This document shows positions 1,270-23,729 of a stretch of 64,000 nucleotides of DNA, piece by piece (the first letter of the stretch is position 1; every line of letters begins with the position of its first letter). The notes under the pieces are model-generated. The model saw only the letters and a list, made by a program, of their open reading frames with translations, made no database searches and was not told the origin of the DNA. Source of the stretch: Elusimicrobiota bacterium (GTDB lineage Bacteria > Elusimicrobiota > UBA8919); contig JAQUMH010000001.1 in NCBI GenBank assembly GCA_028718185.1, forward strand, positions 31,186 to 95,185, in the 5' to 3' direction. The position numbers and the translations under genes are program-made.

Positions 1270-3123
1270 TCATTTTATGAAATATGTCATTTCTTTCTGA
1301 ACTTTTAACAATCGATCTACCTGACTATTTAATAATTTACTATTCAGTACTTCCTTATAATTTTCATCATACATTTTAATTCTTGGTATATTATATGATT
1401 CCAGCGGTATTACTATTGAAAGGGATTTATTTATAACCGCCATTTCATCCCATGTCGTGGTAACGATATATTCCCTTTCTTTGTTTTCCAAAAGAGAGAA
1501 CCCCTGACTATAGTCGTTTGATGAATTTTTACAGCCTAAAAACGAGAACATTGTAGAAACTACATCTAAATGACTTGTCAGTTTTTTATATATCTGCGGT
1601 TTATGGTTTGGAATATACAAAACAAACGGGACTTTGACCTGTTCTTCGCAAAAACCCTGATTATGACCATAAAAACCTTTTTCAAAAAATGCCTCGCCAT
1701 GATCGCCGGAAATAATTACAATAGTGTTTTTTAGAATATTTTTTTTCTCCAATTCACTTAAAATTTTACCTATGAGATAATCATCGTAGTAAATGGCATT
1801 TTTATATCTATTGAAAACCGGTAATATATTATCTTTATTAAGTGTGATATAATTAAATGTTTCAGCGGCAGGTTTAAATTTATGGAAGTTTGAAGGTGAT
1901 TCATAACTGCCATGCGGACAATCAAAAAAAATAAATGAAAAGAAAGGAGTTTTGGATTCTTTTTTACTTATATACTCTATTAAATCATTTGCTATTATTG
2001 CATCTTTTTCTGATTTGTCTTCTGATTTAGGTTTATCCATTATTTTTTCCGGAGGTATTTCAACAAAACATGTCTTCGTAAATTCAGGGAAAGTTAGTTC
2101 AGTAGCAGCAAGTATCTTAAAATCATAATTTAACTTAATCAAGGAATCAACAAAAACCGGTGATTGTCTTTCCCCCAGTATAGAATTCCAATAATATCCG
2201 TCAATACCATAAAACAATGAAAACACGCCAAATCTTGTACAATTACCCCCACTATAATGATCCTTAAAAACCAAAGATTTTCTGCTAAATTCATAGATAT
2301 TAGGAGTTATGTCTTTGTTTAACATATCATATCTGAAAGAATCGATTAAAATCCATATAATATTAGGTAAATTCTGCTGGTTTTTGTAAAATTCTATCTT
2401 TTTTTTTGGATAAATAAGTCCGGAATGTTCTTTATCCAATTGAAAGGAAACTGTTTCGTCTATTTTTAAATTAAAATATTTTTGAGCTAATTTCTTAATT
2501 GTAAGAGGTTGATATAAAGGGAATAATTTCATATGCCTGGTTATATAAGGGTTGTTTTTCAAGTCGGCATATGCATAAATCCCTTTATCCGCAACTATAA
2601 CCGACAGAACGCAAATAACTGCCAAATAAATATTATTTTTTCTTAAAATATATTTTTTTTCTACTAAAGATTTAGCAAGATAATTATACAAAAATATCTC
2701 AAGCAGGAATAAAGATATAATGATAAAAACAAAAAACAGCTTTGTCGCCAAGTTAAAATCCAACGATTCCCACCCGCCTTTCGTAAATAAAGTATTTATT
2801 ACAAATCCATTTATATGAAATCTAAAAATCCTGTAAATCCCGACGTCTATAAAGAACAATAGATTAACCGTAAAAAACATAAATATAAATATAATTTTGG
2901 GTAATCGCATAAAATAAAATACCGACAAAAGCAATAACAACAAAATATAAACCAAAAAAATATTTGAGAGATATGCGATAATTGTATATATTATCTCCGC
3001 AGGATTATTACCGACAAATTTAAAATACGGGAGACCAATAAGCAAAGTTAATATAAGATTAAAAAATACAAAGATAATGATTTTTAAATATTTTTTATTT
3101 TCCATAATGGTATATAATTTCAT
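1270..3123 (-). CDS. Membrane protein with C-terminal sulfatase / alkaline-phosphatase-superfamily domain (YejM / LTA-synthase-like)
   Basis: N-terminal multi-helix hydrophobic region; DSFRYDMLN and ISGDHGEAF motifs typical of sulfatase-type metal sites. Confidence 0.6.
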   Translation of the reverse strand: MKLYTIMENKKYLKIIIFVFFNLILTLLIGLPYFKFVGNNPAEIIYTIIAYLSNIFLVYILLLLLLSVFYFMRLPKIIFIFMFFTVNLLFFIDVGIYRIFRFHINGFVINTLFTKGGWESLDFNLATKLFFVFIIISLFLLEIFLYNYLAKSLVEKKYILRKNNIYLAVICVLSVIVADKGIYAYADLKNNPYITRHMKLFPLYQPLTIKKLAQKYFNLKIDETVSFQLDKEHSGLIYPKKKIEFYKNQQNLPNIIWILIDSFRYDMLNKDITPNIYEFSRKSLVFKDHYSGGNCTRFGVFSLFYGIDGYYWNSILGERQSPVFVDSLIKLNYDFKILAATELTFPEFTKTCFVEIPPEKIMDKPKSEDKSEKDAIIANDLIEYISKKESKTPFFSFIFFDCPHGSYESPSNFHKFKPAAETFNYITLNKDNILPVFNRYKNAIYYDDYLIGKILSELEKKNILKNTIVIISGDHGEAFFEKGFYGHNQGFCEEQVKVPFVLYIPNHKPQIYKKLTSHLDVVSTMFSFLGCKNSSNDYSQGFSLLENKEREYIVTTTWDEMAVINKSLSIVIPLESYNIPRIKMYDENYKEVLNSKLLNSQVDRLLKVQKEMTYFIK

Positions 3124-4360
3124 TTTCAGGATATTTTTTAGGAAGCTTTAAATAAATATAATTAGATGTATACCCGTAACCATTTGTCTCGGTTAAAACT
3201 TCCATTTTTTTACCCATAAACTTTTTAGAAAAATCATGCCGGAGCTGCAAATCCAACATCCGCAGCTTTGTTTGCCATTTCTTCACTAGCGATGAGTTTT
3301 CTCTTATCATTTTAAAATTGACAGGATTTATCAACTCTGCTTCTGTCCCAGGTCTTCTGGAAAACTTAAAGATATGCAACCGCGAGAACTTGCACTTTTT
3401 TATGAAGTTATATGTATTGTCAAACGTCTCTTCCGTATCTGTCGGATATCCGACAATAATGTCTGTTGTAATTCCAATATCTGTAATCTTTTTTCTTATT
3501 TTACTGACTTTTTTTAAAAATTCCTTAGTTAAATAAGGTCTTTTCATGTCTATTAATATTTTATCATCACCAGACTGGAGCGGAATATGTAAATGATGAC
3601 AAAGTTTTTTTGACTCAGCCATATGTTCTATCAAATCATCGGTAATGTCGTTTAATTCAATCGAAGAAAGCCTTATACGATAAAGTCCTTCTGTTTTTTC
3701 TAATTCTTTTATTAAACCGGTTATATTAACCTTTAACTTATTCTCAATAAATTCATATTTTCCAAGCCGTATGCCGCATAGAACAACCTCCTTGTGTCCG
3801 GCTGAAACATAACATCCCACTTCTCTAACAACATCATCATAACTTTTTGAAGATAATGTCGGTCTGACTTTCGGCACAACACAATAAGCGCATTTACCGT
3901 TACAACCATCCTGAACTTTCACAAAAGCCCTGGTGCGATTGTGAAAAACTTCAGCCGCTATATCAATATTGTTTATTTTATTATAATTAGCATCTATTAT
4001 ATTTAAAATGTTTTCTTTGTTTGAATTTTTAAACAGTTTTACCTTGGGAAACTCATTTCTTAAACTACTCTCCGCTCTTTCAACATAACATCCCGTGAGA
4101 AATATTTTTGCTTTAGTATTTATTCTTAAACATTTTCTTAAATATTGCTTTGTTTTATGATCTGCATTAGAAGTTACTGTACAAGAATTAATAATAATAA
4201 TATCGGCGTCTTCAGGTCCCGTAAAAACACACCCTGCTCTTGAAACTTCAGCCTGCATTTTTGAAGTTTCACACTGATTTACTTTACAACCAAAAGTATA
4301 GAAATGTATTTTCATTATATCAGCTATATTATATAATAAGAAGGTGATTTTAGAGGACAA
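3095..4360 (-). CDS. mtaB: MiaB-family radical SAM tRNA methylthiotransferase (MtaB-like)
   Basis: N-terminal MTTase Cys triad (FGCKVNQCE...NSCTVT...GCYV) plus radical SAM CNGKCAYC; sits downstream of dnaJ-rsmE as yqeV does in Bacillus subtilis. Confidence 0.8.
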   Translation of the reverse strand: MSSKITFLLYNIADIMKIHFYTFGCKVNQCETSKMQAEVSRAGCVFTGPEDADIIIINSCTVTSNADHKTKQYLRKCLRINTKAKIFLTGCYVERAESSLRNEFPKVKLFKNSNKENILNIIDANYNKINNIDIAAEVFHNRTRAFVKVQDGCNGKCAYCVVPKVRPTLSSKSYDDVVREVGCYVSAGHKEVVLCGIRLGKYEFIENKLKVNITGLIKELEKTEGLYRIRLSSIELNDITDDLIEHMAESKKLCHHLHIPLQSGDDKILIDMKRPYLTKEFLKKVSKIRKKITDIGITTDIIVGYPTDTEETFDNTYNFIKKCKFSRLHIFKFSRRPGTEAELINPVNFKMIRENSSLVKKWQTKLRMLDLQLRHDFSKKFMGKKMEVLTETNGYGYTSNYIYLKLPKKYPENEIIYHYGK

Positions 4361-14788: not shown

Positions 14789-17700
14789 CTATTTATCAGC
14801 CCAGTCTTTGGCGATTAAAATTGCTTGTTCCAATACTGTTTCGGTTGCTTTTTTCTGTTTATCAGGTGGATACCCATATTTTCTTAAAATTCTTTTTACC
14901 ATTACCCTCAAATTTGCCTGTATATTTTCTCTTATTGTCCAGTCAATAGTAACATTATTTCTCACTGTCTTTATCAGTTCCCTTGCAATTGTTCTCAAGA
15001 TTTCATCTCCAAGAACCTTAACTGCACTGTCATTTACTTCCAAAGCATCATAGAATGCAAGTTCATCTTCAGTTAAATTTAATAACTCACCCCGTTTATC
15101 AGCATCCCTCAACTTCTTTGCTAATTCAATGAGTTCTTCTATAACTCTTGCTGTTTCTATTGCCTTATTCTGATATTTCCGAATCGTCTTTTCCAGCATT
15201 TCCGCAAATGACCTGCCCTGTATTAGATTTCTTTTTGTCCTTATTTTTATTTCGTCATTCAGCAATTTTTTCAAAAGTTCAAACGCTAAATTTTTGTGCG
15301 GCATATTTTTTACTTCCGCCAAAAACTCATCCGAAAGAATTGAAATATCCGGTTTTTTAATCCCAGCTGCTTCAAATACATCAATCACTTTATCAGAAGT
15401 AATTGCTTTTGATATTATCTGTTTTATTGCCGTATCAAGTTCTTCTTCTGTTTTACCACCACCCACTTCAAACTTCGCAATTCTTGACCTTACCGCTTGA
15501 AAAAAACCTACATTGTCTCTAATCTCAAGTGCCTTTTCATTCGGGACGGCAAGGGCAAACGCCTTTGATAACTGCGAGACATAATTCAAAAATCTTTCTT
15601 TTCCCTTCTCTTTTTCCTTGCCTAATATAAATTCGGCCGCTTCAGCCAATATGCCCATCTTTTCTCTTACACCAACAGTGAAAAACTTCTTATAATCAAA
15701 TTTACCTGCCTCGCCAACAGGCGGGACGAACATGCCACAAACGATTTCGTATTTTTCAAGCATAACTGCAACTGCTTCTCTCTGGTCAAAAGTGGGCTTC
15801 CCTTCTCCGCCACTTTCTGTATAGATTGAAAGTGCTTCTTTCAAATCGGCTGCAATGCCTAAATAGTCAACCACGAGTCCACCGGGCTTATCTTTGAAAA
15901 CCCTGTTCACTCTTGCTATCGCCTGCATAAGACCGTGCCCGCGCATCGGCTTGTCAATATACATCGTATGCAAACAAGGAACATCAAATCCCGTAAGCCA
16001 CATATCTCTCACAATTGATAGCTTAAGCGGGTCGCTGTCATCTTTCATTCTGTTGCCTATTTCTCTGCGTCTCTGTTTATTTCTTATATGTTCCTGCCAA
16101 CCAACATCATCACTTGCAGAGCCGGTCATTATTATTTTAAGAAAACCTTTGTCATCGTCTTTGTGATACCAATCGGGACGGAGTTTTATAATCTCATTAT
16201 GCAGTTCAATACAAATACGCCTACTCATACAGACAATCATTCCTTTGCCATCAAGCACTTTTAGACGCTCTTCAAAATGTTCTACAATATCTTTTGCAAT
16301 CTGTTTAATCCTTTTTTCACTGCCAATGATTGCCTCAAGCCGAGCCCATCTTGTTTTTAACTTCTCTTTTTTCTTTACTTCTTCGAATTCGGTCACTTCT
16401 TCGAATTCAGGGTCAATTTTAGGTCGCTCTTCTGCTTTTAACTCAAGTTTAGCAAGACGGTTTTCATAAAATATTCTGACTGTGGCACCATCTTTAACTG
16501 CCTGCTCAATATCATAAACATCAATGTAATCGCCAAAAACTGCAATCGTATTCCTGTCAGTTTTTTCTATAGGCGTTCCGGTAAATCCTATAAATGAAGC
16601 ATTCGGCAATGCATCCCGCATATGCTTTGCGAAACCATCTATAAAATCATACTGACTTCTGTGTGCCTCATCTGCAATAACTACTATGTTTCGTCTTTCA
16701 GACAACAATTGGAAACGGTTTGCATTTTCTTCAGGGAAAAATTTTTGTATTGTTGTAAATACAACACCACCGGATGCAACTTTTAAATATTCTTTAAGTT
16801 CATCTCGTGTTTCTGCCTGTACCGGCTCTTGCCTTAAAAGTTCCTGACACCTGCAAAAAGTACCATACAATTGGTCATCTAAATCGTTTCTATCTGTAAG
16901 AACGACAATAGTCGGATTATCCATCCTAAGAACAAGTTTGCCGGTATAATATGCCATTATTAAACTTTTCCCTGAACCCTGAGTATGCCACACAACACCG
17001 CACCGTTTGTCGCCTTTCTTACTTGATGCTTTAATCGTTGATTCAACCGCCTTATTTACCGCATAATATTGGTGATATGCTGCTATCTTTTTGGAAGTTT
17101 TAATTTGCTCATTTTCAAAAACAATAAAATGTCTAATTAAATCAAGAAGAACTTTTTTATTCAGCATCCCTTTCAATAGCACTTCTATCTGCGGAACAGT
17201 TGCCGGTTCTTTTTCTGTGCCATCAATTGTTTTCCAAGGCAAAAACCTCTCCCAATCAGAAGTTATTGTCCCTGCTCTTGCTTCATTGCCATCACTTATT
17301 ATAAGGATTTCGTTGTAATTGAAAACGGAAGGTATTTGTGTTTTGTAGGTTTCAAATTGCTTGAATGCCGATTTTATAGTAGCGTTTTCATCAGCAGGAT
17401 TTTTTAATTCAATGACAACTAACGGCAAACCATTCACAAAAATAACAATATCGGGACGCCTGTTGTTATTATTTTCTATAACTGTAAATTGATTTACTGC
17501 TAAAAACTCATTATTGTTGATATTCTTAAAATCAAAAAGCCATACTTTATCACCAACAATTTTTCCCACCTTTTTATATTCAACATCAACACCGTTAACC
17601 AAGAGTTTATGGAAATTATGATTATTTACAATCAGGTTAGGGGTTTTGTCTCTCAATACTTTTTTAAGGACTTCTTCTTGGGCAGTTTTTGGAACCTGTG

Positions 17701-17890
17701 GATTTAACCTGTCAATTGCTTCCATTAACCGCTCAATCAAAACAGAATTGAAATAATCATCTCTTTCAGGTCTCGTGCCATCAACAGCAATATCCGGACC
17801 ATAAAGTGTCTTATATCCCAATTCTTTTAATATGTCCAATGATAACTGTTCAATTTCCGATTCGGTGATTATGTGTGGCATATTTTTCAA
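14789..17890 (-). CDS. hsdR: Type I restriction enzyme R subunit (HsdR)
   Basis: 1033 aa; N-terminal nuclease region, SF2 helicase motifs (TQGSGKS, DEAH-like [10 protein letters not shown]). Confidence 0.95.
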
Positions 17891-17893
17891 TGT

Positions 17894-18658
17894 TTATGAA
17901 ACTAATTCTTGCCTTATTGCTTCTCTCTCACTCCAAATTACTGGATTAACTCCATAATTAAACAGTGCTTCAATAACCGAAGGCATAGTTTTTTGTTCTG
18001 AATCATTTAAGAAAGCATAAGCTTTAGAATTAGTAGGTCTAACTTCCTTGGTATCAATCCAAGAAAAAGCAAGAGCTTGTGCAGTATCTTTATTGGGTCT
18101 ATTTATTGTTTGAATAATTCTTTCCGGTTGCCTTTTTGATGCAGGAATTACAAAGTCAAATAAATGGTCATAACCGCTTTTCCCAGTAAATTTAATCCTC
18201 GGAGTATATCTAATATCATTTATATTCATCCAAGAAGTAACATCTTCAAAAAACAAACTGGCAACCATAGGTGCAGCTAAATAAAATAAATCATTTATTG
18301 CTAACATAGCCTGTACCAAATTATGCTTTTTTAATGAAAAGTTTTCAGATGAAGCATGCAAAGTTAAAGATTTTTCTTGCATTTTAACGCCAAAACCGTT
18401 TAATGTTAATAGAAGAAGATCCTTGCGTTTTTTACTATCTAATTCACAGCCCGATTGCATAAGATCAGCAATGGTATAGCCATCATCTGTTAAAATATAA
18501 CCATTATTATCCCGCTTAACATATATTTGTAAATAATCATTGTGTCTATCCAAATAAGGAGTCGTTATTTCGACCCAATCTTCTACTTGACGTAAAGCTG
18601 TTTTATCTTTCAACCAATTTAAGTAATTATCCAAAAGCTTTTGTATTTCGTCTATCAT
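17894..18658 (-). CDS. Uncharacterised protein embedded in type I R-M operon (from memory resembles DUF1828/DUF1829-type proteins)
   Basis: 254-aa ORF; ATG overlaps stop of upstream 151-aa ORF (ATGA), and it ends 4 nt before hsdR start; no catalytic motif recognised. Confidence 0.5.
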
Positions 18659-19110
18659 GAAAATAACCCCCTCTCTATGTTCGGTGGTTCTATTATATTA
18701 CATAATATCATAAAATCGCTCAAGGTTTGCCATAAATCAGAAATATTTGGGAATCTGTCAATTGGCAAAGGTACTGCCCACTTATCACCAAATCCTTCAC
18801 GATAATAATGTAAATGTGGTGATGCTATTTCTTGCCCATCAGGATTCCTATGAGGCTGTCCACCAAAATCTAATCTAACAAGTATTACTACTTGTTGTGC
18901 ACGATTTTGATATGAACCTTTTAGTAAGTCAATTCTACCTCTGCTAATATCAAGCATAAAGTTCTCACGTTTGTTTACAGAAGTTATAGGAACGCGTATT
19001 TGTCCACCATATCCAGGGTATTCCCAACTTACATCATTGACTTTTACTTTTTCCATTGCTATCAAAGTATTCGCTTCGGTTTGAGGTAAATTAATTTCAG
19101 GCATTTGCAC
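18655..19110 (-). CDS. Uncharacterised protein embedded in type I R-M operon
   Basis: 151-aa ORF overlapping hsdS 3' end by 14 nt and coupled to the following 254-aa ORF; contains PHLHYYREG and HRNPDG segments of unknown significance. Confidence 0.5.
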
Positions 19111-20290
19111 TCCTTTTTATTCTTATCTTTCCTGACATTAGTTTTGGTAAAAGAGAATCACAAATATCGTTTAATTTTTTATTTTCTCGCAAATTCTCTA
19201 ATATTTGCTGCATGATAGGCTCAATTACCTTATGAAACTTTTTCATTATGAAATCATTTGGAACAACAATACTTATTCGCGCAAAATTTCCTGTATTAAG
19301 ATTCAATGTAGCTGTTCCCCCAAGTCCCATAGTTTTTATTTCTTCACTTTTGTTCAACATAGAAAAATACATAAAATATGGACTAATTTCTTTTTTACAA
19401 ATAATGCTATTTATTTGTTGATTTGTCTGACTAACTTCACTTGTAAGTGATACTAAACCTGGAGTAGCTATACAACTGACACAGACAGATAACGCAGATA
19501 AATATTTATTTTTTTGTAAATCAGCCCCTTGTTTTGAAAGTATTTTTTCTGTTTTAATTACAAAAACAAAATTACGCATATCAGGAATAGTAATGAACGG
19601 TATATCTGCTCCATAATTATCTCTATTTATAGTTGCAGGAGTTTTTCCGCAAATAATATCACCACAGTCTTTTATTTCTTTTTTCCCCCATCCATCAGGT
19701 AAACCATTTTTAAATTTTGTTTTTTCATAGTCGGGGAAACGGAAAGCAATAAACCACTCCTTGAATATTGCCTGAGCTATTGACTCAAGGGTTTTATTCA
19801 TCTGGTTATTTAGTTCTATCTTTTCATCAAGGTCAGAAAGAATTTTTGCAATCGCCCGCTGTTCATTGAACGATGGTATATGTTTTTTTATTTCATACAC
19901 GTAATCACGATTAAGTCCGGGAACTGCTGAATGACTATTCATTTCAGTAAGATTTAATGTTTTAAGAAAATAATACCAAAACAATATGTCGTTTTCTCCT
20001 TTTGTTTTTACGTAATATGTTGTATCAATAGGCCAAAAATCAGTTTTTGAAAATGTAACTTGTCCAACAGTGCCTTTCCTGCCAATAATAATTCCAGGTC
20101 CTTTTACAAGTGCTTCATTATGCTGACCAATAATACCATTTGAACCATAGACCGATATATCACCACCTTTTCTCTCTCTTGTTATAAGCCCATCACCATA
20201 AACTAACTCAATATTATTTCCAACAGATGATTCTTCCCATCCTTCGGGAATTGCACCAATTTCTGTTTGTTTGAATTTATTCTTTTCCAT
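19097..20290 (-). CDS. hsdS: Type I restriction-modification specificity subunit (HsdS)
   Basis: Two target-recognition domains separated by conserved spacer; ORF track begins at 20347 but likely start is the internal Met (MEKNKF...) at 20290, just after the HNH gene stop. Confidence 0.85.
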   Translation of the reverse strand: MEKNKFKQTEIGAIPEGWEESSVGNNIELVYGDGLITRERKGGDISVYGSNGIIGQHNEALVKGPGIIIGRKGTVGQVTFSKTDFWPIDTTYYVKTKGENDILFWYYFLKTLNLTEMNSHSAVPGLNRDYVYEIKKHIPSFNEQRAIAKILSDLDEKIELNNQMNKTLESIAQAIFKEWFIAFRFPDYEKTKFKNGLPDGWGKKEIKDCGDIICGKTPATINRDNYGADIPFITIPDMRNFVFVIKTEKILSKQGADLQKNKYLSALSVCVSCIATPGLVSLTSEVSQTNQQINSIICKKEISPYFMYFSMLNKSEEIKTMGLGGTATLNLNTGNFARISIVVPNDFIMKKFHKVIEPIMQQILENLRENKKLNDICDSLLPKLMSGKIRIKRSANA

Positions 20291-20297
20291 ATTGTAT

Positions 20298-20990
20298 TTA
20301 ATTAGTTGCGATTGTCTTACATTTTTTACAAAAACATCCCGGGTCATGAAAACCTATCTGCATAATAAGTTTGTCCCAGAACAGCATACCCCAGAAGTGA
20401 AATTTATTTAACTCGGGAATAATAATATATTTATAATCAAATACTGCTGGATACTGCCCTTTTGATGAGATATTACGTATATACTCAAACTCCAAATCAG
20501 GTCTTTGTCCTTCTGAGTAAATCTTGTTAATACGCGGTGTTCTATCAGGAAGAAACTGTCCGCATTCTTTAAAAAATAACCCTCTTGTAATTTTCCAAAC
20601 CACTCTCCAAACACGCTCGCCATTGAATCGTTTTAGTACTTTATTATATGGTAAAATAAGCCCTGACGGCCTTGTTTCAAATTCTTTAAAAACCATTTTG
20701 TGAAGACGACTACCTGCGGGACGCTTTCTTCTGCATACAATATCCTTCCAAATTTCGCTTCCTGTATCTGATTCCATTGTTAATGGAGCTATAGAATGAA
20801 CAAAATAGTCTTCATCTATCTGGTATGGTTCATGACATTTGCGATGAACCGGCAAAGTAAATAAATTTGGGGAATCTTTCTTCCTAACACGGGTCGCATA
20901 AAATTGTTTCGGAGGAACGTGGTCTTTATCTACTTTACCCGATAGCATATTACCGCACAAGTAACATATTTCTATTTCTTTTTTAGCCAT
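20298..20990 (-). CDS. HNH-motif endonuclease-like protein
   Basis: CYLCG...DKDHVPP...VHRKCH arrangement consistent with an HNH/zinc-finger nuclease core; C-terminal CFCKKCK; lies between yhcG-like gene and hsdS. Confidence 0.55.
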   Translation of the reverse strand: MAKKEIEICYLCGNMLSGKVDKDHVPPKQFYATRVRKKDSPNLFTLPVHRKCHEPYQIDEDYFVHSIAPLTMESDTGSEIWKDIVCRRKRPAGSRLHKMVFKEFETRPSGLILPYNKVLKRFNGERVWRVVWKITRGLFFKECGQFLPDRTPRINKIYSEGQRPDLEFEYIRNISSKGQYPAVFDYKYIIIPELNKFHFWGMLFWDKLIMQIGFHDPGCFCKKCKTIATN

Positions 20991-20992
20991 TG

Positions 20993-22132
20993 CTATTTTT
21001 TTATTTTGTTTGTGCTTTTACTCAACTCTTTCTCAATTTGTTTTATTGTTGGTAGATTCGATTTGAATTTCTTGGGTAAAGAATGTGTTAATTGATATTC
21101 AGAAACACCAATTGGCTTATGAATATCGCTTAAAGCATACTCAGCGACCACTTTATCTTTGGTTTTGCAGATAATTATTCCGACAGTCGGTTGGTCGAAT
21201 TCACTTCTCAACTGGCGGTCTACTGCAGTAATATAAAAATTCAATTTTCCGGCAAACTCCGGTTGAAATACCACAGTTTTTAGTTCTATCACGATATAAC
21301 AACGCAATTTAATATGATAAAAAAGCAGGTCTATGTAGAATTCACTTTCACCTACACGCAATGGAATTTGCCGTCCTACATAAGAAAAACCGGTTCCTAA
21401 TTCCAATAGAAACTTTGCAATATGCTCAATAAGAGCATTCTCCATGTCTTTTTCATTGTATTCTTCGGTTAACCTTAAAAAGTCAAAAATATAGGGGTCT
21501 TTGAGTGTTTGTTTGGCGAGGTCAGATTGGGGTTTAGGCAGTGTAAGAGAAAAGTTATTAACCGCCTTGCCTTCTCGTTTGAAAAGTCCCCATTCAATCT
21601 GGTGAACTAATACAGAGCGGCTCCAATTGTGCGTAATTGTTTTTTGAACATAATAAATTGCTTCTTTTATATTCTTACATTTTGTTATAATTGCGATGTT
21701 ATGACCCCAAGGTATCTGGGTGATTTGTGCAACGGCTTGTTGCACAAATTGTCCGACAGACTTTTGGATAATTCTGTTTATTGGCAATTGGGCAACAGCC
21801 TGTTGCCCAATTAAGCCAACAGGCTGTTGGCTTATCGCATTTCCCCGGCTATAAAACTGATACCATTGCTTGATATATTTAAGATTTCTAAGTGAGAATC
21901 CCTTCATATCCGAAAACTCTGCTGTTAAATCCTTGCTAAGCTGAATTAGAAAACCGCCACCCCATTTGGTGTTTGCCTGTTTAGCCACAATATCTGCACC
22001 AAGCTCCCAATAAAAGGAGAGCATTTCTGAATTAACTTTTACCGCTGCTTTAATCTGGGCGTTACGGACTTTTGCTTTTAAATCAGCAAGCCAAACTTTG
22101 TATTCCTTATCAAATACTAAATTAGATTTCAT
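20993..22132 (-). CDS. YhcG-like PD-(D/E)xK nuclease (DUF1016 family)
   Basis: QIPWGHN N-terminal motif and C-terminal [10 protein letters not shown]...IVIELK PD-(D/E)xK core; overlaps hsdM stop by 11 nt. Confidence 0.8.
21725..21835 (-). repeat. Three in-frame near-perfect palindromes inside the yhcG-like coding sequence
   Basis: TTGTGCAACGG/CTTGTTGCACAA (21725-21747), AATTGGGCAACAG-C-CTGTTGCCCAATT (21786-21812), AAGCCAACAG-G-CTGTTGGCTT (21814-21834); encode repeated QQAVAQ peptide. Confidence 0.6.
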
Positions 22133-23729
22133 ATCCCAGTCCTTTTAAATTTTTCTTTATTTCTTTTTCAAGTTCTTCGGATTTTTCAAACTGTTCTGAA
22201 AGTTCTTTGGTAAGTCGTTTCATTTTTTCATTAAACTTTTCTTTATCTTCTTCCACTTCTTCGGTGCCTACATATCTACCGGGTGTCAAAATATAACCCT
22301 GTGATTTTATTTCTTCAAGTGTTGCCGATTTGCAATAACCTTTTTCATCTTTATACTTGCCCGCCGACGTCCCAGTGGCGGGTTTACCTTCTCCCCGCCA
22401 TGCATGATATGTATCAGCAATTCTATTTATCTCTTCTTCAGTTAATTCCCTGTGCCTGCGGTCTATCATTACGCCCATTTTCCGAGCATCAATGAAAAGA
22501 ACTTTGCCCCTTCTGTCTTTGAATTTGTGATTTTTCTTATCGCGAGCAATAAACCAAAGACAGGCGGGTATCATTACATTGTAGAAAAGTTGTGATGGCA
22601 AAGAAACCATACAATCCACTATGTCTGACTCAAGCATATTTTTTCTTATTTCACCTTCATTTGACTGGTTAGAAGACATAGAACCGTTTGCTAATACAAA
22701 GCCTGCAATACCTTTTGGCGATAGATGATAAACAAAATGCTGAACCCATGCGAAGTTGGCATTACCTGTCGGAGGGACACCGTATTTCCATCTCACATCA
22801 TCTCTTAATTGCTCGCCCTTCCAATCACTGTCATTAAATGGTGGATTGGCTAATATAAAATCTGCTTTTAAATCTTTATGTTCATCTTTTAAGAAACTGC
22901 CTTCATTATTCCACATTATATTTGCATCTATACCACGGATTGCTAAGTTCATTTTACAGAGACGCCATGTGGTTTGATTGGATTCCTGTCCATTGATAGC
23001 AATATCACCTAATTTACCACCGTGTGCTTTTACAAATTTTTCGCTTTGAACGAACATACCACCGGAACCACAACACGGGTCAAAAATACGACCTTTATAT
23101 GGCTCCATCATTTCCACAAGTAATTGCACTATGCTCCGCGGAGTATAAAATTGCCCGCCTCGTTTACCTTCCGAATCTGCAAACTGCCCTAAGAAATACT
23201 CATAAACTCTACCCAAAATATCTTTACTGCGATTTTCGTAATCTCCTAAACTAATTGTACCTATAAGGTCTATTAGTTCACCAAGACGCTGTTTATCAAG
23301 TTTAGGGTCTGCATAATTTTTAGGAAGAACACCCTTAAGGGTTGGATTTTCCTTTTCTATAACATACATTGCGTCATCTATGATTTTACCTATTGTGGGT
23401 TGTTTTGCATTTTTCTGTAGGCGTGACCAGCGGGCTTTTTCCGGGACATAAAACACGTTTACGGCTTTATATTCGTCTCTGTCTTCAATTGTCTCATAAC
23501 GCACTTCGGGTTCTTTTATATATTGATTGCTTTTTGGATTAGAAACTTCTTTTACAAGTATTTGATAATGTTCTTCGAATGCGTCGGAGATATACTTAAG
23601 AAAAATCAATCCTAATACAATATGTTTATACTCAGCAGCATCCATATTGTTCCGCAGTTTATCAGCTGCTTTCCACAGTTTTTCCTCAAAACCAAGATTT
23701 CCACCATTTGAATTATCTTCTTTTTTCAT
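22122..23729 (-). CDS. hsdM: Type I restriction-modification DNA methyltransferase subunit (HsdM)
   Basis: 535 aa; N6-adenine MTase motifs including NPPFN and SAM-binding region. Confidence 0.95.

Follow-up and report, generated by a model that had tools for sequence, protein, structure and literature searches.

In a window of 64,000 nucleotides (nt) from an Elusimicrobiota bacterium (contig JAQUMH010000001.1 of assembly GCA_028718185.1), a gene for a 379-amino-acid (aa) YhcG/DUF1016 protein and a gene for a 230-aa protein of an unnamed family stand in tandem between hsdM and hsdS of a type I restriction-modification (R-M) system. The best-supported interpretation is that an intact type I R-M operon holds, at its two inter-subunit junctions, three unrelated cargo modules that are transcribed with it. 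That yhcG and the 230-aa gene stand in tandem is due to two chance insertions, not to a system, and we regard the two genes, with high confidence, as independent cargo. On balance we favor a reading that combines this independence with a role of the 230-aa protein as a stand-alone HNH defense nuclease; taken by itself, the assignment as a defense nuclease stands at about even chances.

Seven minus-strand genes, in the order hsdM, yhcG, the 230-aa gene, hsdS, DUF6978, DUF1828/1829 and hsdR, form the type I R-M operon, with the following features:

22122..23729, minus strand: hsdM (535 aa), methyltransferase subunit and first gene of the operon (Pfam N6_Mtase, 6.2e-112; HsdM_N, 1.1e-27)
20993..22132, minus strand: yhcG-like gene (379 aa), with a DUF1016 N-terminal domain and a YhcG PD-(D/E)xK nuclease domain
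20298..20990, minus strand: the 230-aa gene, member of an unnamed family of solitary HNH-type proteins
20802..20966, minus strand: predicted HNH (beta-beta-alpha-metal) core, residues 9-63 of the 230-aa protein
20301..20777, minus strand: C-terminal alpha+beta region, residues 72-230 of the 230-aa protein, with no fold or family match
19097..20347, minus strand: hsdS (416 aa), with two target-recognition domains (Pfam Methylase_S, 6e-37, in two stretches)
18655..19110, minus strand: DUF6978 gene (151 aa; Pfam DUF6978, 5e-43; PADLOC PDC-M24A, 2.3e-55)
17894..18658, minus strand: DUF1828/DUF1829 gene (254 aa; DUF1828, 1.3e-29; DUF1829, 2.5e-34; PADLOC PDC-M24B, 3.4e-108)
14789..17890, minus strand: hsdR (1033 aa), restriction/translocase subunit and last gene of the operon

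All seven genes lie on one strand, and the junctions that were read are either overlaps or spacers of at most 7 nt. In the junction sequence, yhcG starts at an ATG within the 3' end of hsdM, with an overlap of 11 nt. Its stop codon is followed after 2 nt by the ATG of the 230-aa gene, and a spacer of 7 nt lies between the stop of the latter and an in-frame ATG at 20290. The hsdS open reading frame (ORF) as called from 20347 overlaps the 230-aa gene by 50 nt, and the true hsdS start is probably, judging from the sequence, the ATG at 20290. HsdR carries the complete expected set of Pfam domains (HSDR_N, SWI2_SNF2, ResIII, T1R_D3-like and T1RH-like_C). The ORF list, Pfam and translation confirmed that both inserted ORFs lie between hsdM and hsdS and that the 230-aa translation contains the motifs quoted in the original prediction for this DNA. 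The GC content of the locus (0.357) is nearly equal to that of the remaining window (0.337) and thus gives no sign of recent transfer; terminal or flanking repeats were looked for around the inserts and none were found. Between hsdS and hsdR, the DUF6978 and DUF1828/DUF1829 genes (17894-19110, minus strand), which overlap by 4 nt, constitute a further embedded module that the original prediction had left unmentioned; a literature search for 'PDC-M24' found no mention of the term.

The 230-aa protein had no significant match in Pfam, NCBIfam, PADLOC (PADLOC-DB v2) or PHROG, and sequence searches of the PDB with the single protein, a full-length profile and an N-terminal profile returned noise only. 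A first homologue search yielded 145 full-length homologues (E down to 1e-130), nearly all of 220-245 aa and none with a Pfam domain; one of them, annotated as hypothetical in an Elusimicrobia metagenome-assembled genome (MAG), is identical to the 230-aa protein. A profile search against 1.84 billion cluster representatives then retrieved 2,903 representatives (50% identity clusters) at E<=1e-3 and 1,022 at E<=1e-10, the best 150 of which align over the whole profile, evident fragments aside. The 145 full-length homologues and 2,903 cluster representatives show that the 230-aa ORF is not a chance ORF. The genomes that carry the family, nearly all MAGs, belong to Desulfobacterota, Atribacterota, Omnitrophota, Actinomycetota, Proteobacteria, Acidobacteriota, Planctomycetota, Nitrospinota and others, with a patchy distribution over many phyla. 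A scan of 185,579 species genomes, restricted to exact peptide patterns, found 77 loci, one per genome, and the window likewise holds a single family gene. There was no match among 50,697 INPHARED phage records or 72,556 PLSDB plasmid records, and a single one in IMG/VR. Members are 27-86% identical to the window protein, and the family is basic, with a median isoelectric point (pI) of 8.75.

Translation of the 230-aa gene places the motifs CYLCG at residues 9-13, DHVPP at 23-27 and HRKCH at 49-53. An AlphaFold2 model built from a 44-sequence alignment shows one globule, with a predicted local distance difference test (pLDDT) score of 89.3 and a predicted template modeling (pTM) score of 0.87. 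Its N-terminal topology, with strands at about residues 20-25 and 44-49 followed by a long helix at 50-71, is the beta-beta-alpha arrangement of His-Me finger nucleases. The top structural match was the HNH domain of ZRANB3 (5mkw), followed by many HNH nucleases, including those of GVE2 (5h0o), EcoKMcrA (6ghc) and the Cas9 HNH domain. At the sequence level, Pfam HNH_5 (PF14279) gave sub-threshold matches in 11 of the 44 members and none in the window protein itself, while the family consensus matched it with 19.1 bits (E 0.0013), profile positions 1-21 of 56 aligning with residues 8-27 (CxxC...DHxxP).

Residue conservation was taken from an alignment of 313 non-identical family members. The proposed zinc-site positions are conserved at 95% (C9), 94% (C12), 99% (H49) and 99% (C52), the shortfall at C9 and C12 being mostly due to gaps in N-terminally truncated sequences. 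Among the proposed active-site positions, D23 is present in 93% of members (Glu in another 4%), H24 in 97% and N53 in 94% (His in another 4%); the window protein carries His at position 53, where 94% of the family has Asn. A downstream motif is near-invariant (D59 100%, E60 99%, Y62 99%). The features expected of an HNH/His-Me finger protein were thus found: a beta-beta-alpha-metal fold, Asp or Glu before the putative general-base His, Asn or His at the start of the helix, and two Cys/His pairs. That D23-H24, N53 and D59-E60 hardly vary speaks for a retained active site, and we are fairly confident, from sequence and model together, that the 230-aa protein is an HNH-fold protein of this kind. 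An HNH core had been predicted from the motifs, and both observations that bear on it turned out in its favor, with the beta-beta-alpha fold predicted and the catalytic and metal-ligand residues conserved at 93-100%.

Residue roles can be proposed by comparison with HNH enzymes. C9, C12, H49 and C52 would hold a structural Zn ion, H24 would act as the general base, and D23 and N/H53 would bind the catalytic metal. D59 and E60, two helical turns past N53, probably help to bind the metal and may hold a metal-bound water, by analogy with Glu127 of Serratia nuclease. As in Zn-ribbon HNH and His-Me finger nucleases, the beta-beta-alpha element has a CxxC before a D-H dipeptide at the end of strand 1, and, as in HNH nucleases, the Asn/His at the helix start directly follows the second x2-Cys pair. 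In contrast to the usual HNH arrangement, this second Zn pair is H-x2-C and not C-x2-C, giving a CCHC variant rather than CCCC. The family further differs from known HNH nucleases by the invariant D59-E60-x-Y62 after the metal-binding Asn and by the fusion of the core to a region of ~160 residues. With no database model, a divergent CCHC HNH core bearing an invariant DE-x-Y, and a fused region of unrecognized fold, the 230-aa family is new.

In the model, the C-terminal ~160 residues comprise three helices, next a long helix at residues 124-143, and finally a four-stranded sheet. No Pfam domain was found in this region in any of the 44 members, and no fold match was obtained for it in searches in which it was not separated from the rest of the protein; the original description of a long C-terminal region without a recognized domain holds on both counts. 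Helix 124-143 is conserved (R126 97%, R129 89%, K133 100%, R136 92%, G137 99%), and its basic residues R126, R129, K133 and R136 probably contact nucleic acid. The basic helix and the median pI are consistent with nucleic-acid binding. Toward the C-terminus, a cluster of H215, C219, C221 and C224 (H-x3-C-x-C-x2-C; window positions 20319-20348) is complete in 206 of the 313 members, and in the members without the full cluster the Cys positions are mostly gaps or non-Cys residues. This pattern in the alignment suggests an optional second Zn site.

The neighboring 379-aa protein, by its sequence, is an ordinary full-length YhcG/DUF1016 PD-(D/E)xK protein, in agreement with its original assignment as YhcG-like. 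It matches YhcG_C at 4.8e-66 (221.9 bits; cut-off 32.5) and DUF1016_N at 3.6e-37 (127.9 bits; cut-off 32.8), both over the full domain length, as well as the PADLOC candidate PDC-S02 (2.2e-154) and PHROG 22762 (1.3e-96), and its PD-(D/E)xK motif is intact (E262/E264, D268, E283-x-K285). It therefore shares with the YhcG/DUF1016 family (PF06250 and PF17761; PDC-S02) the full length, the intact motif and the usual R-M-embedded position, and differs from the norm only by an insertion of ~30 Gln/Ala/Val-rich residues in the N-terminal domain, in which QQAVAQ is duplicated. The stretch looks inserted because 169 residues align to 137 Pfam profile positions. A 22-nt inverted repeat (82% complementary, 11-nt loop) at 21784-21838, within the DUF1016 N-terminal domain of yhcG, coincides with this stretch, and the two QQAVAQ copies are at residues 110 and 131.

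The recurrence of YhcG/DUF1016 at R-M loci, which the original prediction had pointed out, is documented: DUF1016 co-occurs with type I R-M genes (PMC3424549), is enriched beside phase-variable hsdS genes (PMC9881135), and came into PADLOC as a candidate through 'guilt-by-embedding' (10.1101/2024.01.29.577857). A published test of one PDC-S02 representative found no protection against T4, T5 or T7 (10.1101/2024.09.26.614923). The YhcG half of the finding, including its embedding in type I R-M loci, is thus already known.

The relationship of the 230-aa family to YhcG and to other neighbors was examined in ~170 family loci gathered from exact-protein look-ups, 77 species genomes and 80 metagenome contigs, with flanks of <1 kb to 8 kb per locus (individual loci are given L numbers below). 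A tblastn search with the window YhcG found it absent from all ~170 other family loci. An all-against-all BLAST of 128 immediate neighbors from 69 loci recovered only HsdS (3) and HsdM (2) as recurrent proteins, and a Pfam scan of 126 immediate neighbors returned 168 families, none in more than three proteins, with N6_Mtase in two, both HsdM. In a PADLOC scan of the neighbor proteins the table was filled by redundant HsdS models. A conserved partner gene for the 230-aa family, considered as a candidate, was rejected on the neighbor BLAST and Pfam counts, which show none. The 230-aa family is a single-gene module.

Besides the window, the 230-aa gene lies between hsdM and hsdS in L011, L012, L021/L134 and L092, which amounts to ~5 of ~150 distinct loci. 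In L012, whose homologue is 70% identical to the window protein, hsdM lies directly upstream and there is no yhcG. The homologue in L021, identical to L134, is 53% identical and stands in the order hsdM, homologue, hsdS, hsdR; that in L092 is 64% identical, in the order hsdM, homologue, hsdS, two unknown genes, a ThsB-type TIR gene and hsdR. In these three loci hsdM, the homologue and hsdS follow one another directly. The homologue in L011, the closest of all (84-86% identical), has a PRiA4_ORF3-like gene upstream and, downstream, hsdS and a gene for a 461-aa Schlafen/AlbA_2-domain protein (2293-3678); the PRiA4_ORF3 family also occurs in the cargo of L172/L173. A neighbor-joining tree unites the window, L011, L012 and L092 in a single clade and places L134 elsewhere; L005, sister to this clade, adjoins a Fic gene. 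Other members lie beside Fic, near HigB and an XhoI-type R-M system, beside integrases, next to a STAND-like NTPase, or among REase-ARP, TIR, PIN/MazE, IS66 and DruA genes.

Close homologues of the window hsdM, at 82-92% identity, are found on Elusimicrobia metagenome contigs. The three closest HsdM relatives placed on contigs (91%, 85% and 82%; HsdR 81%) have none of the three cargo modules of the window. Instead, a DUF3800 protein or an unknown 459-aa protein occupies the slot between hsdM and hsdS, and hsdS is followed by two unknown proteins and Fic (L175/L176) or by a TIR_2 protein (L177). This variable cargo indicates that both junctions of the R-M family are interchangeable cargo slots and that the 230-aa gene is one such cargo. 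Inheritance of the 230-aa gene along one R-M lineage, suggested by HsdM/HsdR identities of 62-79% among the embedded loci, was rejected, because HsdM at 70-80% identity is extremely common (8,000 matches) and the closest relatives (82-91%) lack the gene.

Across related type I R-M operons, the cargo at the two junctions comprises a 234-aa protein, a 132-aa protein and the ThsB-type TIR protein in L092 (3113-4725), unknown proteins of 459, 262 and 307 aa and Fic in L175 (11571-17610), and DUF3800 and TIR_2 proteins in L177 (11539-14394). Several of these L092, L175 and L177 proteins, those without a Pfam domain, could be further embedded defense candidates. In L172 (10001-14431), a glycosyltransferase/radical-SAM cluster surrounds the closest HsdM homologue (91%), after which come DUF3800, a small ORF, PRiA4_ORF3 and RadC. 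Neither hsdS nor hsdR lies within 10 kb, and L172 resembles a type I system that is orphaned or has decayed.

Defense genes are frequent among the genes embedded in type I R-M, BREX and Hma systems (10.1101/2024.01.29.577857). Based on this published precedent, the embedding in five type I loci, the defense and toxin neighbors, the patchy distribution and the basic pI, we propose that the 230-aa protein has a role in defense. The HNH core, formed by the N-terminal ~65 residues, would pack against the alpha+beta region of unrecognized fold. A nuclease that acts alone, with neither a methyltransferase nor an antitoxin nor a partner, would have to spare host DNA. Most simply, it would recognize a feature absent from the host, either modified bases, the target of McrA and the SRA-HNH enzymes, or unusual DNA structures, the target of ZRANB3. 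The 230-aa protein may then cut modified or structurally aberrant invader DNA in a type IV-like manner and so complement the type I enzyme, whose target is unmodified DNA. Such complementation is known for TgvAB, a type IV system embedded in the type I operon of Vibrio VPI-2 (PMC11411939), and the same role has been shown for BrxU in BREX. A type IV-like substrate for the 230-aa protein is our guess.

The proposed protein resembles the type IV HNH enzymes (McrA, ScoMcrA and the SRA-HNH enzyme TagI) in being a single polypeptide with an HNH core and a second domain, with no cognate methyltransferase, and, as with McrA, ScoMcrA and SRA-HNH enzymes, the family occurs in defense contexts, including beside or inside type I loci. 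However, McrA, ScoMcrA and TagI have a recognizable and usually N-terminal reader (McrA-N, SRA or SBD), whereas here the HNH core is N-terminal. Like PrrC in EcoprrI, TgvAB and the 'guilt-by-embedding' candidates of PADLOC (PDCs), the 230-aa gene is a foreign, same-strand, co-transcribed gene between hsd genes (PMC12707154, PMC11411939, 10.1101/2024.01.29.577857). Its sequence has no relationship to that of PrrC, an ABC-ATPase anticodon nuclease, or of TgvAB/GmrSD (DUF262/DUF1524), and, in contrast to PDC-S02 and PDC-M24 in the same operon, its family is outside the models of PADLOC-DB v2. A more far-reaching possibility, which we hold only tentatively and consider rather doubtful, is that the family represents a new, widespread single-gene anti-phage system, in which a Zn-HNH nuclease is joined to a sensor or specificity domain not seen before, with a mechanism unlike that of type IV readers; RefSeq-based 'guilt-by-embedding' screens would have missed it because it occurs almost only in uncultivated bacteria.

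Several observations weigh against a defense nuclease. The structural matches to HNH domains are low, with Z at most 4.4, and the consensus score of 19.1 bits lies below the 27.5-bit gathering threshold of HNH_5. Pfam and fold searches recognized no known modified-base reader in the C-terminal region, and the family has no close characterized homologue with nuclease activity or phage protection. Several members (L001 and L003) lie amid housekeeping genes with no defense gene within 8 kb, and the defense-gene contexts given above are a plain listing. Moreover, the null result for PDC-S02 against T4, T5 and T7 means that embedding alone is no guarantee of a defense phenotype (10.1101/2024.09.26.614923).

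Four alternatives to a stand-alone HNH defense nuclease were weighed. The embedded clade could possibly act as a PrrC-like guard that is held inactive by HsdMSR and freed when a phage inhibits the R-M complex. PrrC in EcoprrI provides a precedent (PMC12707154), the hsdM-hsdS position recurs in five independent loci, and the four embedded copies in the window, L011, L012 and L092 are monophyletic. However, the ~97% of distinct loci outside type I operons have no hsd gene in the available flanks, so that the family lies mostly outside R-M systems, whereas PrrC is almost exclusively embedded (10.1101/2024.01.29.577857); moreover, the closest relatives of the window's R-M system lack the 230-aa gene, and L005, which is sister to the embedded clade, adjoins Fic and not an R-M system. 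We consider a guard role for the protein unlikely.

A function outside defense is assigned a similarly low probability. In this case the protein would serve DNA repair or recombination, or would be a zinc-finger nucleic-acid binder that has lost catalysis, its operon position being incidental. The members amid housekeeping genes fit such a function, as do the weakness of the fold matches and the identity of the best one, ZRANB3, a structure-specific repair nuclease. Against it, D23-H24, N53 and D59-E60 are near-invariant, copies are found repeatedly within R-M operons and next to toxin or defense genes, and the rare and patchy occurrence (77 loci in 185,579 species genomes by the exact-peptide-pattern scan) is unlike that of a core repair function.

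It is more improbable still that the 230-aa gene is a selfish, homing-type HNH endonuclease gene that entered the operon by its own activity. Mobility is common among free-standing HNH genes, and the 230-aa gene does occur in very diverse contexts and phyla; yet the phage and plasmid collections hold no copy and IMG/VR a single one, the window has a single copy and the genome scan one locus per genome, no repeats flank the insert, and members at 27-86% identity are not near-identical copies. The family also has a large conserved non-nuclease region, but the Pfam scan detected no DNA-binding module known from homing endonucleases.

Finally, the original proposal that YhcG and the HNH protein form a two-nuclease module adding a second restriction or abortive-infection activity, which is favored by adjacent genes 2 nt apart on one strand of one operon and by intact nuclease motifs in both proteins, is now highly improbable and largely refuted by lack of co-occurrence, since YhcG flanks none of the ~170 other family loci, three type I loci (L012, L021/L134 and L092) have the homologue and nothing else between hsdM and hsdS, the nearest R-M relatives have neither gene, and PADLOC lists DUF1016, which stands alone at numerous R-M loci (PMC3424549, PMC9881135), as a single-gene candidate.

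In itself, the tandem arrangement is ordinary, as type I R-M operons often carry embedded cargo and YhcG/DUF1016 is a known case, and nothing observed so far departs from established principles. At this locus, the two junctions between the subunit genes are seen to serve one type I R-M family as swappable cargo slots. The useful result is the 230-aa family, which comprises ~2,900 clusters in many phyla, mostly of uncultivated bacteria, and constitutes a well-defined, testable candidate both for work on defense genes and for entry as a family of its own. Should its C-terminal region turn out to be a new reader of a DNA feature, the family would add to the modification- or structure-dependent nucleases.

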